Shown here: positions 35,572 through 38,839 of the stretch, one piece after another
How the letters are laid out: every line of letters starts with the position of its first letter
Position numbering within the stretch: the first letter of the stretch is position 1
NCBI GenBank assembly: GCA_001029755.1
Contig: CP011214.1
Location: 200,595-264,594 of the forward strand
Origin: Candidatus Woesebacteria bacterium GW2011_GWF1_31_35
Lineage (GTDB): Bacteria > Patescibacteriota > Microgenomatia > UBA8517
Length of the DNA stretch: 64,000 nucleotides
Direction of reading: 5' to 3'
Position numbers and translations under genes: made by a program
Notes under the pieces: generated by a model
The model's input: the letters and a program-made list of their open reading frames with translations, nothing else
Database searches by the model: none
Told to the model about the DNA's origin: nothing

Positions 35572-35817
35572 TTAAATTATTGTAGAAGTTGAAATTGTAG
35601 ATAAACTTATACCTGATGTTACCAATGTTTGAATCCGACCTCCAAGAAAATTGTTATTAAAAACTTTTACTGGCTCATCATAATGTCTTTCTTCTCCACA
35701 CTTCTCACAAAAATATAGACCAGTAGAGCTCATAAACACAGATGCAATTGCTCCGCAAATGCAAACTTTTAAACCATCTGAAGTGTACATTTTAGTAGTC
35801 CATTCCGCCCATACCAC
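35572..35817 (-). CDS. Small Cys-containing (Zn-ribbon-like) protein
   Basis: CICG...CEKCGEE pattern. It overlaps the groEL 3' end, so the real start is probably the internal MYTSDG. Confidence 0.3.
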
Positions 35818-37417
35818 CTTGTGGCATTACTGGAGCTTGTTTTGGTTCTGGAATATCGGTTACTAATCCTTCTGTAGTGAGTACCATCATAGCTACACTT
35901 GCAGCGTTTTGAAGTGCTGATCTTGTTACTTTAACAGGATCAATTATTCCCATTTTAGTCATTGAACCAAAATTTGAAGTTAGGGCATTATAACCAAAAT
36001 CAGAGTCAGATGAGCTTTCTACTTTTTTAAGTACAGAGACTTCATCATCTCCTGCATTCTTTGCAAGCCATTTAATTGGTTCTTCTAAAGCATCAAAAAC
36101 AATATCAGCTCCTAATTTTTCATCTCCTGCTAGTTTTAATTTCTTTATTACTTTTCTAGCCCTCAAAAATGCCGTTTCTCCACCAGGAACAATACCTTCT
36201 TCAATTGCAGCTTTTGTGGCTCCTACTGCATCTTTGACTCTTTCCTTTTTCTCATTAAGTTCAATTTCTGTTGCAGCTCCAACATTTATTTGAGCAACAC
36301 CTCCAGAAAGTTTTGCTAATCTTTCTTGTAATTTTTCTTTATCAAAATCAGAGTCAGACAACTTAATTTGAGATTTTAAAAGTCCCACTCTCTTATCAAT
36401 TGCTGATTTTTGTCCTTTTCCTCCAATTATTCTTGCATTGTCTTTATCAGCCCATATTTTTTCAGCCTGACCCAAGTCAGTTATTTCTATTGATTCAAAA
36501 GTTTTACCAGTATCTTCAGAGATTACAGTCGCGCCAGTTAATATTGCAATATCTTCTAAAGTTTCTTTTCTTCTATCACCAAATCCTGGAGCTTTGATAG
36601 CTAATACATTAAATGTACCTCTTAATTTATTTACAACCAAGGTAGCCAATGCTTCTCCTTCAATTTCATCAGCAATTATGACTAAATTTTTTGAAACTTT
36701 TACAAATTTTTCCAAGAAGGGAAGAAGTTCTTGAATTGAAGTTATCTTTTTATCAGTTAGAAAAATATAAGGATCTTCAATTTCAGCTTCCATTTTTTCT
36801 GGATTAGTTACAAAATAAGGAGAAGAGTAACCTCTATCAAATTCCATTCCTTCTTTATATTCAATATCAATTGTAAATCCTTTACCTTCTTCAACTGTAA
36901 TAACTCCATCTCTTCCAACTTTATCCAAAGCCTCAGCAATTTTTGCTCCAATTTCGTTATCCCCTGCAGAAATTGTAGCTATTTGAGTAATTTCCTCCGT
37001 ATTTTTAATAGGTTTTGCTTGTTTTTTAAGTTCTGAGATTACGGCTTCAACTCCTTTTTCAATACCTTTTTTTAATATCATTGGATTTGCACCATTATCG
37101 ATTTTTTTCATCCCATTTTGAGTCATTACTTGAGCTAATAGTGTAGAGGTAGTTGTACCATCTCCTGCATTATCATTTGTTTTACTTGCGGCCTCTTTAA
37201 CTAGTTGGGCGCCCATATTTTCGAATGGGTCAGGAAGATCAATTTCTTTTGCAACCGAAACTCCATCATGGACAATATTTGGAGCTCCCCATTTTTTATC
37301 AAGTGCAATGTTTCTACCTTTTGGTCCTAATGTAGTAACAACTGCTTTTGCAACTAAATTAATTCCTATTAGTAAGGATTTTCTTGCGTCTTTTCCGAAT
37401 TTTAATTGTTTTGCCAT
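35792..37417 (-). CDS. groL: Chaperonin GroEL (60 kDa)
   Basis: 541 aa: [41 protein letters not shown]-site GDGTTT, and the C-terminal GGMGGMDY tail. Confidence 0.95.
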
Positions 37418-37422
37418 GTTTT

Positions 37423-37662
37423 CTATTTCTGTTCAACTACTACACCCGCCAACTTACTCCATGCACTATTCCAAGCTTTAGATTTACTTAATCTATCATA
37501 CTTTTCTTGAGTTGAAGCCCTTAATTCTTTATTTAAAAGATCTTGACTAAACACTAAATTACGTCCAGCAATCACGGCCACTTTCTCTCTTACTGAGAGG
37601 GCAGCATCTGGATAGCGTTTTTCTAAATCATCTAATTGATATTTTCTTACTATTTCTACCAT
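37423..37662 (-). CDS. Hypothetical 79-aa protein inserted between groES and groEL
   Basis: Intact ORF with proper spacing (2 nt after groES, 5 nt before groEL). No TM and no recognisable family. Confidence 0.4.
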
Positions 37663-37664
37663 AA

Positions 37665-37973
37665 TTAAATTTGGACGGCCAGCACATCTTCAAACTTTAC
37701 AAATAAATATTCCTTGCCTTCAATTTTGACCTCATTTCCCCCCCATTTTTTATAAAGAACTATGTCCCCAACTTTACATGGAGAAGATTTTTTACAAGCC
37801 ATACAACCTTTACAATCAACACATTCATCATCTCCGGTAGCTAAAACTTTCCCTTTTAATGGCTTTTCTCCTGCATTATCAGGAAGATAAATACCCGACG
37901 CGGTCTTAACCTCTTTTTCCAGAGGCTCAATTAGAAGATATCCTGCAGTTGGTTTTAAATTTACTTTTGACAT
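37665..37973 (-). CDS. groS: Co-chaperonin GroES with Cys-rich insertion in the roof-hairpin region
   Basis: LKPTAGYLLIEPLEKEVKTASGIYLPDNAGEKPLKGKVLATGDD...GDIVLYKKWGGNEVKIEGKEYLFVKFEDVLA is GroES. The roof loop is replaced by ECVDCKGCMACKKSSPC. Confidence 0.85.
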   Translation of the reverse strand: MSKVNLKPTAGYLLIEPLEKEVKTASGIYLPDNAGEKPLKGKVLATGDDECVDCKGCMACKKSSPCKVGDIVLYKKWGGNEVKIEGKEYLFVKFEDVLAVQI

Positions 37974-37982
37974 TTTAATTAA

Positions 37983-38009
37983 TTAGCATTTAAAGGATAC
38001 GAGTGCTAT
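37983..38009. promoter_or_regulatory. CIRCE operator (TTAGCATTT-N9-GAGTGCTAT) upstream of groES
   Basis: On the minus strand it reads TAGCACTC-N9-AAATGCTAA, placed just downstream of a minus-strand TTGACA-N17-TAGAAT promoter (38008-38036). Confidence 0.7.
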
Positions 38010-38032
38010 TCTACGCACACCAGGTTCGTATG

Positions 38033-38839
38033 TCAAGAGGTCAATCTAGATATAACTACTTTACTCCAATTGTTTGGATGAAATATTGCTTGTGTTGGAG
38101 TTACAACCTCTCTAGAAATTTTATTCTTCATATAAAGATACTGTAATTTAAAAGTTAATTTTTCTACAAAAGAGAATGTTTTAGACGATATCACTTTTTT
38201 AAATTTTAAATTTTTATTTAATTTAACTGCCTTTGGCCAATAATCTAATATCCATGAATTTCTATTTAATAATTTTTCATAAGTATTATCTTTATTTATG
38301 AGTGGTACTATTTGGGCTATTTCATGGGATGAATAGATATTTCTGTTTTCATTTTTCCAAACTAAATCCTCTTCATCTAACCACATATTAAGACATAATT
38401 TATCCCTCTGATTATTATCCTTAGGCTTTCTTACTTTAAAACCATAAATATTAATTAATAGATAACTAATAAGTCTTGTCGTCCAAAGAGTTTTATTTTT
38501 AGTAATAATCATTAAATCTATATCAGAACCTTTATCTGCATTGTTCATCGCAAGTGCTCCTGTTATAGCTACTAATTTAATTGTTGGAATTTTACCCAAA
38601 ACTAAATTTACTTTTTTTGCAATTTTAAATTTATTTTTTGAATACTTTTTTCTTTTTAATCTTTTTTTAATTATTTCTTCTCTCCCTTTTAAAAAATAGA
38701 AACTATTTTTTTCGACTATAACTTTTTTTGTTTTTATATTTTTACTTAACTTCCATTTTTTAAGTTCAAGAGGCGTCAATGGATAATCAAAAATGTCATG
38801 ATAAATTACTGAAGAGATTTCACTGGATCTTAATTCCAT
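38033..38839 (-). CDS. Pol-beta-superfamily nucleotidyltransferase domain protein
   Basis: GALAMNNADKGSDIDLMII matches the G[SG]...DxD nucleotidyltransferase motif. Confidence 0.45.
   Translation of the reverse strand: MELRSSEISSVIYHDIFDYPLTPLELKKWKLSKNIKTKKVIVEKNSFYFLKGREEIIKKRLKRKKYSKNKFKIAKKVNLVLGKIPTIKLVAITGALAMNNADKGSDIDLMIITKNKTLWTTRLISYLLINIYGFKVRKPKDNNQRDKLCLNMWLDEEDLVWKNENRNIYSSHEIAQIVPLINKDNTYEKLLNRNSWILDYWPKAVKLNKNLKFKKVISSKTFSFVEKLTFKLQYLYMKNKISREVVTPTQAIFHPNNWSKVVISRLTS

Follow-up and report, generated by a model that had tools for sequence, protein, structure and literature searches.

A cysteine-rich GroES roof and a gene-sized insert between groES and groEL in a Woesebacteria chaperonin operon

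Introduction

Few proteins are as well studied or as highly conserved as GroES, whose seven subunits assemble so that their roof hairpins meet at the symmetry axis. What does it mean when a chaperonin operon carries a cluster of cysteines at that apex, and an additional gene between groES and groEL? The question is raised by a 64,000-nucleotide stretch of the genome of Candidatus Woesebacteria bacterium GW2011_GWF1_31_35 (contig CP011214.1; hereafter the window), in which groES, a 79-amino-acid (79-aa) open reading frame (ORF) that we call ORF X, and groEL follow one another. We incline, by a modest degree, to a joint explanation in which the window carries one of a family of cysteine-rich, metal-binding roof alleles, and ORF X is laterally acquired cargo or a leftover of a mobile cassette, the two features being independent. 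With 21-56 cysteines per heptamer, such a lid apex would make a chaperonin variant new in both structure and function, and might reveal how folding is joined to metal handling or stress sensing in organisms with tiny genomes. For a housekeeping gene, discrete and exchangeable roof alleles come as a surprise, and so does a recurrent hotspot at the groES/groEL junction, with its nuclease-like gene and its orphan ORFs of rapid turnover. The two together form a natural system in which to follow the colonisation of highly expressed essential operons by selfish elements and orphan genes.

Identity of the GroES protein

The elements at the centre of the analysis lie as follows (positions are those of the window).

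37973 to 37665, minus strand: groES (102 aa), co-chaperonin, Pfam Cpn10 (PF00166)
37776 to 37826, minus strand: cysteine-rich roof segment E50-C66 (ECVDCKGCMACKKSSPC), in place of the roof beta-hairpin
37662 to 37423, minus strand: ORF X (79 aa), at the exact junction of groES stop and groEL start
37417 to 35792, minus strand: groEL (541 aa), Cpn60_TCP1 match at 4e-69; start codon a normal ATG, C-terminal tail of the GGM type

Pfam recognises the groES product as Cpn10 (E 2e-22; 79.5 bits, with the cutoff at 21.1), and solved GroES chains in the PDB, 1AON among them, match it down to an E-value of 8e-19. The NCBIfam co-chaperone GroES models give 1.3e-23 at best, with all scores under the curated equivalog and subfamily cutoffs. 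The sequence ...GDDECVDCKGCMACKKSSPCKVGD... contains the cysteines C51, C54, C57, C60 and C66, spaced Cx2Cx2Cx2Cx5C, exactly the four regularly spaced residues plus a fifth that a preliminary description of this DNA had pointed out. In the alignment to solved GroES and Cpn10 chains, residues ~47-66 (GDDECVDCKGCMACKKSSPC) occupy the position of the roof hairpin, where 4 residues are inserted compared with the canonical protein; the usual hairpin itself is absent, and the longer cysteine-rich segment stands in its place. The Cpn10 match and the structural alignments thus support the earlier description of a recognisable GroES with a replaced roof. Within the GroES family the roof hairpin is variable and not a requirement for membership, T4 gp31 having none.

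Outside the roof, the protein is that of an ordinary lid. The mobile loop TASGIYLPDNAGEKP (…GIYLP…EKP…) aligns with the mobile loops of solved GroES structures, with I-Y-L replacing I-V-L. Mobile loop and barrel are intact and highly conserved, and the ratio of nonsynonymous to synonymous substitution rates (dN/dS) of groES is about 0.07-0.08 (0.08 against the related locus L001), indicating strong purifying selection. An AlphaFold2 (AF2) monomer model has the expected beta-strand core and barrel, with low confidence at the mobile loop, as expected of a flexible loop. The protein ends in ...FEDVLAVQI without extension, and a His/Cys-rich tail of the type found in Helicobacter HspA is absent.

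Roof alleles among relatives

Sequence analysis of the 120 closest GroES clusters, taken from a collection of 5.8 billion proteins, revealed 79 clusters with 3-8 cysteines in the roof and 41 with 0-1. Matches that carry a name all belong to Woesebacteria, Microgenomates or other Patescibacteria, except for some obviously mislabelled metagenome bins. Several roof types recur: Cx2Cx4CC is the commonest allele (15 clusters), followed by Cx2CxCx2CxCx5C (13 clusters), CxCxCxC(x5C) (10) and Cx2Cx3CC (7), and the window's type, Cx2Cx2Cx2Cx5C, is found in 4 clusters plus the window itself. Nearly all cysteine-rich types have a 'DCK' core in common. Residues C, K, D, S and G abound in the loops, which mostly lack histidine and aromatic residues and contain CxxC, CxC and CC motifs. 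In the window's type, all five clusters retain C54, C57, C60 and C66, and one of these clusters (P0005) has Phe instead of C51, so that only four of the five cysteines look constrained. The last cysteine belongs to a common SP[A/V/C]K polymorphism, and an 'SPCK' cysteine is also found alone in many otherwise cysteine-free roofs.

These comparisons dispose of the trivial explanation that the cysteine segment or the extra ORF is an artefact of assembly or a chimera, to which we attach practically no weight. The same loop and ORF are found on independent contigs from other samples and assemblers (loci L003, L094, L001 and L002), at least three roof cysteines are present in 79 of the 120 clusters, and dozens of related cysteine-rich alleles exist. 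In L094, a close relative with a GroEL 97.4% identical, the loop is exactly that of the window, despite a synonymous divergence (pS) of 0.21-0.38 elsewhere. The cysteine-rich roof is a genuine, selected GroES variant.

It is not, however, a property of the whole lineage, the point for which an alignment with relatives had been proposed, but one of several cysteine-rich and cysteine-free alleles. In a GroEL tree built from 80 species-representative genomes, cysteine-rich roofs are concentrated in one Woesebacteria clade, where their distribution is patchy and they are interleaved with cysteine-free types. Loci L005 (CSDCKGGSCCMIDSPAK, 4 Cys) and L013 (VSDGQKIESPAK, 0 Cys), from two species, encode GroEL proteins that are 98.2% identical and have the same groES leader, and a second such case is formed by L014 (5 Cys) and L015 (0 Cys), with 94.3% GroEL identity. 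The L005 loop is the same in amino acids as that of L008, although their GroEL proteins are only 87.4% identical, and near-identical to that of L009 (84.2%). At the DNA level, it differs from the L006 loop at 2 of 39 positions (95% identity), with flanks at roughly 80% as judged by eye. The cysteine-free loop type of L013 is likewise present in L001, L011, L012 and L022. Since the roof types are at odds with the GroEL tree (L005/L013, L014/L015), the roof constitutes a set of discrete, individually conserved alleles exchanged between lineages, and not a slowly diverging loop.

A separate comparison of L005:3001-3303 with L013:3001-3288 displays a clean swap of the roof loop only, making these loci the best natural pair for the role of the cysteine roof.

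Possible functions of the cysteine roof

What would such a roof do? On the best reading of composition and spacing, its cysteines probably bind metal. Thiolate metal sites fit these loops because of the CxxC, CxC and CC motifs, the K/D/S/G-rich context poor in histidine and aromatics, and the minimum of 3-4 cysteines that is kept. The protein would then be a functional GroES in which the apex of the heptameric lid is formed by a slightly longer, cysteine-rich loop in place of the roof hairpin. Its thiolates would bind most likely Zn(II), at about one site per subunit in alleles with 3-5 cysteines, while those with 6-8 may hold two-metal (binuclear) clusters. Seven metal sites would ring the seven-fold axis, placing 21-56 thiols at the apex. 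The metal could stiffen or close the enlarged apex, resembling the situation in Zn-ribbon-bearing and ribbon-less ribosomal proteins, and/or the abundant GroES could buffer metal, resembling the metal-binding tail of Helicobacter HspA; the two roles would not be exclusive.

Several points weigh against this proposal. The number (3-8) and spacing of the cysteines vary across alleles more than expected of a single structural Zn site, and the AF2 model reaches a predicted local distance difference test score (pLDDT) of only ~64 in the roof. A scan of seven roof segments against Pfam gave no significant match to metallothionein profiles, the best being Metallothio_Euk with an E-value of 1.3, and the window's loop had none. 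Metal binding itself is deduced from sequence, with disulfides or iron-sulfur (Fe-S) clusters as rivals.

With disulfides, the roof would be a redox switch, in which intra- or inter-subunit bonds formed under oxidative stress lock or alter the lid. The many closely spaced cysteines, including CxxC and CC motifs, and the stress regulation of the operon would suit such a switch, and Patescibacteria hosts are likely anaerobes that meet oxygen occasionally. On the other hand, the 3-8 cysteines are variously spaced with no conserved pairing pattern, their K/D/S/G-rich, aromatic-free context is more like that of thiolate metal sites, and a seven-fold cluster of 28-56 thiols would favour uncontrolled cross-linking. 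We therefore regard the redox switch as unlikely.

Less credible still is an Fe-S cluster, ligated per subunit or bridging subunits, that would turn the lid into an Fe-S carrier or sensor. The ferredoxin motif is Cx2Cx2Cx3CP, and the Cx2Cx2Cx2C of the window resembles its first three ligands; moreover, most alleles have at least four cysteines. However, the spacing is unlike that of ferredoxin or radical S-adenosylmethionine (SAM) motifs, no proline follows the fourth cysteine, the commonest allele is Cx2Cx4CC, and scans of the GroES and roof segments returned no Fe-S profile match.

As to the preferred metal-binding roof, the nearest precedent is Helicobacter pylori HspA, a GroES whose added cysteine-containing segment is thought to bind and store nickel, zinc or bismuth (PMC5116745). 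Both are bona fide GroES proteins with an added cysteine-containing segment thought to bind metal, but the addition in HspA is a His-rich C-terminal tail, whereas here the C-terminus is ordinary and the roof is replaced by a segment whose potential ligands are almost all cysteine, with essentially no histidine. Unlike the HspA tail, the roof here exists as several exchangeable alleles. Our literature search found HspA as the only relevant item and no description of a cysteine-rich or metal-binding GroES roof, which, as far as we found, is previously undescribed.

A similar evolutionary pattern is offered by the ribosomal proteins L31, L33, L36 and S14, whose cysteine-containing (C+) and cysteine-free (C-) forms were reportedly found to be patchily distributed by Makarova, Ponomarev and Koonin in 2001 and in later work, the C+ forms being said to double as a zinc reserve. 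Like GroES, these are abundant housekeeping proteins with cysteine-containing and cysteine-free forms and a patchy distribution driven by recombination or transfer. They differ in being whole-gene paralogues or replacements with a canonical four-cysteine ribbon, while here only a loop of ~20 residues is involved, with 3-8 cysteines.

That the roof tolerates remodelling and can bind cations is illustrated by the phage co-chaperonins T4 gp31 and RB49 CocO, with their altered roofs, and by the metal-binding dome loop of Mycobacterium tuberculosis Cpn10. The mycobacterial site, however, is acidic and takes Ca/Mg-type ions, gp31 does without the roof hairpin, and neither these two nor CocO has a cysteine cluster. 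Finally, the loops are like metallothioneins in their CKC, CxxC and CC motifs, their K/S/G/D-rich context and the near absence of aromatics, but metallothioneins are free-standing proteins without profile similarity to the roof, which is a loop grafted into a folded domain. Membership of the metallothionein families was accordingly rejected (best Pfam E 1.3).

ORF X, an orphan gene between groES and groEL

The 79-aa frame reported earlier between groES and groEL is indeed there and tightly packed, with 2 nucleotides (nt) from the groES stop to its ATG (TAA-TT-ATG) and 5 nt from its stop to the groEL ATG (TAG-AAAAC-ATG). Its homologues are confined to three other protein clusters, two found by a word-index search and one more (P0123, E 5e-12) by an exhaustive profile search of 1.84 billion representatives. 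No homologue was found in Joint Genome Institute (JGI) metagenome contigs, IMG/VR or GenBank phages, and the proposed search of profile databases assigned it to no family in Pfam (E up to 1), PHROGs or NCBIfam. In every carrier ORF X comes directly after groES, with groEL next in the window, L001, L002 and L003, and with an endonuclease-like gene between the ORF X homologue and groEL in L084. The earlier question of conserved homologues thus receives a divided answer: the ORF is kept in position in a few relatives, but with only three other clusters it is not an old member of the operon.

DUF5678 (PF18929) was considered as a family for ORF X and rejected, as there is no Pfam match at E up to 1 and the AF2 model is all-helical. 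Cluster P0124, a weak match to the ORF X profile, is a triple DUF5678 repeat in which only the motif L-E-K-x-Y-P...V-A-A-G-K-N is common to both.

Is ORF X translated? The frame stays open down to 36% identity (range 36-97%) with in-frame indels (multiples of three), dN/dS is 0.26-0.53 overall and 0.26-0.43 in comparisons to L084, and AF2 confidently predicts four helices (pLDDT 83) from four sequences only. Based on these three lines, ORF X is probably a real, translated, helical orphan gene. Two caveats count against this conclusion: the window-L001 dN/dS of 0.53, which is based on only 46 differences, is by itself no proof of purifying selection, and the low pS of ORF X could partly reflect constraint at the RNA level.

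An untranslated insert would take these caveats further, the 245 bp being an element of mRNA processing or stability, or a decayed fragment of a mobile element whose frame was kept by chance. It would account for the unusually high nucleotide identity to L001 (83-87%), which combines low pS with a comparatively high nonsynonymous divergence (pN), and for the lack of a clear Shine-Dalgarno sequence, although groES and groEL have none either. Set against it, four clusters keep the frame open at identities as low as 36% and their indels are multiples of three, the dN/dS to L084 is 0.26-0.43, and AF2 confidence is high from only 4 sequences. We give this alternative little credence.

Lateral history of ORF X

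Between the window and L001, pS is 0.29 in ORF X and 0.65-0.84 in the nucleotidyltransferase-like gene, groES, groEL and the HhH-GPD gene around it (Fisher p 2.5e-6 for the drop). The boundaries are sharp, with pS at 0.80 in the last 25 codons of groES and at 0.63 in the first 40 codons of groEL. The divergence of ORF X between the window and L001, whose hosts are distant, is about that found genome-wide between the window and L094, the closest relative with genomic context, where ORF X is absent and the groES-groEL spacer measures 3 nt. The low pS relative to the flanks and the absence from L094 therefore show that ORF X entered or was exchanged at the junction laterally, after the host lineages had diverged. 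Roof and ORF X are independent of each other: L001 combines ORF X with a cysteine-free roof, and L094 has the identical cysteine roof and no ORF X.

Mechanistically, ORF X would be co-transcribed from the heat-shock promoter in a tightly packed operon and, as cargo or leftover of a mobile cassette, would ride on a strong stress promoter without being a chaperonin subunit. It is best explained as mobile-element-associated cargo. Classical homing is less well matched, and this speaks against part of the proposal: no co-conversion, in the form of low synonymous divergence, is seen where groES and groEL adjoin ORF X, and the sharp flank boundaries are better explained by precise insertion.

The competing view makes ORF X a dedicated chaperonin accessory, such as an adaptor, a regulator or an obligate substrate, whose place in the operon would serve to express it in stoichiometric amounts alongside GroES and GroEL. 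Its tight translational spacing between groES and groEL, its conserved position in the window, L001, L002, L003 and L084, and the confident helical prediction would all agree with such a role. However, among billions, only four protein clusters contain it, the closest relative L094 lacks it, it evolves under relaxed constraint (dN/dS ~0.3-0.5, against ~0.07 for groES and groEL), and it gives way to unrelated small ORFs in the same spacer elsewhere, which together make an accessory function quite improbable. What had been highlighted as a noteworthy gene splitting the operon is real, but instead of a conserved component of the chaperonin it is an orphan of recent, lateral origin that sits in a hotspot.

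The groES/groEL junction as an insertion hotspot

The L084 locus leads from ORF X to a second kind of insert. Its ORF X homologue is followed, after 1 nt, by a 228-aa nuclease-like ORF and then by groEL. This 228-aa ORF has 243 relatives, and the six close ones that were looked up, all from Woesebacteria, lie between groES and groEL (6/6; L085-L093). The following nuclease-like genes, of 225-240 aa, were located.

L084, 311 to 997: nuclease-like gene
L085, 3501 to 4187: nuclease-like gene
L087, 676 to 1362: nuclease-like gene
L089, 3501 to 4223: nuclease-like gene
L091, 2501 to 3187: nuclease-like gene
L092, 1551 to 2228: nuclease-like gene

The gene also sits at the junction in the metagenome loci L098, L111 and L147. 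The spacers of L103 and L112 were counted as carrying the gene or distant relatives of it; they are ~290 nt long, as are those of L133 and L135. Lineages with differing groES roof types are occupied at the same junction.

The family is characterised by N-terminal Zn ribbons and a conserved PDF...EVY...K core. In distant relatives the C-terminal core is fused to NUMOD3 (15 of 35 members), 2 of the 35 match DUF559, and JGI names some of the relatives 'very-short-patch-repair endonuclease'; the PHROG 'HNH endonuclease' matches the Zn-ribbon part at 1.2e-6. Taken globally, these features resemble the profile of a free-standing homing endonuclease, and we treat the product as a putative nuclease. 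A tblastn search of phages with the family gave no match.

In the occupied alleles, the nuclease ORF ends inside codons 2-3 of groEL, and the position of the groEL ATG reads ATT in L084 (~985-1000), L085 (~4180-4200), L087 (~1355-1375) and L089 (~4207-4225). The empty junction reads TAATTTATGGCGAAACAATTAAAATT. With ATT at this position and the nuclease stop overlapping codons 2-3, translation of groEL has to begin at a non-AUG codon or through termination-reinitiation, and its start is misplaced by gene callers in these alleles.

Small ORFs share the spacer. On the groES side of the nuclease gene lie the ORF X homologue in L084, a 125-aa ORF in L085 and, in L091, an 82-aa ORF weakly related to the latter. 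Three consecutive unrelated ORFs (119, 108 and 108 aa) occupy L092:529-1546, with the same arrangement in L093, in a spacer of 1.7 kb. Other ORFs of 65-80 aa are found in nuclease-free spacers (L007/L012, L008 and L048/L145). A compact spacer of less than ~120 nt is the rule, being present in ~90% of loci. These observations show that the junction is an insertion hotspot for a nuclease-like gene and variable small ORFs.

The idea that the small ORFs (ORF X, L007/L012, L085/L091) form a single family could not be demonstrated (hhalign P 0.077 and 0.015); the best BLAST value among them is 0.005, obtained in a tiny database.

For the derivation of ORF X from a mobile cassette, there are again points on the opposite side. 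A tblastn search of the window with the L084 nuclease-like ORF found no nuclease gene or remnant, and L084 is the sole locus that physically joins ORF X to an endonuclease-like gene. The nuclease activity is itself putative, sequence and profile searches of the PDB gave no match to the family, and its close members are without a Pfam match.

The closest known systems are the free-standing homing endonuclease genes of T4 type (seg/mob, and mobE between nrdA and nrdB). The nuclease-like gene of the relatives is like them in lying, time and again, at one exact junction between two strongly conserved genes that are transcribed together, and in that the target is altered in occupied alleles, here from groEL ATG to ATT. 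In contrast, the window has no nuclease gene, only the small ORF, the setting is a bacterial chromosome and not a phage, and nuclease activity and homing are putative. Our literature search found no homing endonuclease in a groES-groEL spacer. At L089:7718-7723 and beyond, a few kb from the occupied groESL, lies a LAGLIDADG-type gene with weak Pfam matches, a sign that homing endonucleases of several kinds may reside in these genomes.

Roof exchange and the junction

Could the two phenomena be connected? The roof alleles lie ~110-160 nt upstream of the groES/groEL junction, and repair induced by a nuclease at the junction might promote the exchange of groES roof alleles. We rate this connection low because the L005/L013 swap is confined to the loop. 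The boldest combination, in which seven cysteine roofs form a shared inter-subunit metal or Fe-S crown that makes the assembly or opening of the lid depend on metal or redox status, and the roof alleles are shuttled among Woesebacteria lineages by endonuclease-triggered gene conversion, is a speculation that we strongly doubt. If true, a selfish element would be driving adaptive allele exchange in an essential chaperone.

Promoter and CIRCE/HrcA control

The operon runs along the minus strand in the order promoter, CIRCE-like operator (controlling inverted repeat of chaperone expression), groES, ORF X and groEL. The regulatory elements are listed below.

38036 to 38008, minus strand: sigma-70-type promoter, TTGACA (38036-38031), 17-nt spacer, TAGAAT (38013-38008)
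37983 to 38009, no strand assigned: CIRCE-like HrcA operator, ATAGCACTC-N9-AAATGCTAA
727 to 753, matched on the plus strand: second CIRCE, TTAGCAGTA-N9-GAGTGCTAA, with 2 mismatches, shortly after a TTGACA hexamer and immediately ahead of hrcA
1 to 716 (start at 716), minus strand: hrcA, gene of the CIRCE-binding repressor, of which the window holds the 5' part before its end cuts the gene off

The promoter predicted earlier ahead of groES stands, matching 11 of 12 consensus positions as the top promoter-like site of the region, and part of it lies within the 3' end of the preceding nucleotidyltransferase-like ORF. The last bases of the -10 hexamer fall inside the operator, which stops 9 nt short of the groES ATG. 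Two CIRCE-like sites are found in the window, against none in 100 shuffles. What had been called a classic CIRCE is thus a CIRCE-type operator beyond chance, but it is a variant and not a textbook copy, having 3 mismatches, mostly in one arm, relative to the canonical TTAGCACTC-N9-GAGTGCTAA. A survey of 80 related loci, allowing up to 4 mismatches to the canonical form within 150 nt upstream of groES, found the variant ATAGCACTC-N9-GAATGCTAA in 55 of them. The groES operator is best read as a form of CIRCE specific to the clade, not as a decayed copy.

The proposed HrcA control agrees with the presence of hrcA behind its own CIRCE, so that the repressor gene and both operators lie within one 64-kb window. 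The hrcA product matches the HrcA C-terminal domain at 2.9e-13 and the HrcA DNA-binding domain at 3.1e-4, slightly under the cutoff. With its own TTGACA promoter and a CIRCE with two mismatches in front, hrcA is therefore probably autoregulated. The arrangement is like known HrcA/CIRCE control of groESL in its inverted repeat with a 9-nt spacer overlapping the promoter, and in an hrcA with its own CIRCE. It is unlike it in the right arm, which reads AAATGCTAA here, GAATGCTAA in the clade and GAGTGCTAA in the consensus, the variant being conserved across the clade.

Genes downstream of groEL

One further small ORF adjoins the operon.

35572 to 35790, minus strand: 72-aa ORF, zinc-ribbon-like with a CxC...CxxC motif, 1 nt after the groEL stop (TAAAATG)

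Its Zn-ribbon matches are weak and under the Pfam cutoff. In a comparison of 84 loci it is confined to the window and the near-identical L003, and it is absent also from L001 and L094. Possibly co-transcribed with the operon, it is a second strain-specific small ORF attached to groES-groEL.

A HhH-GPD glycosylase gene follows groEL in the window, L001, L085, L087 and L089, in the last case after an intervening GreA gene. When L094 (4939-5629) is compared with window positions 34958-35790, both the zinc-ribbon ORF and the glycosylase gene are missing from L094, where the gene next to the end of groEL encodes an M23 peptidase and lies on the other strand.

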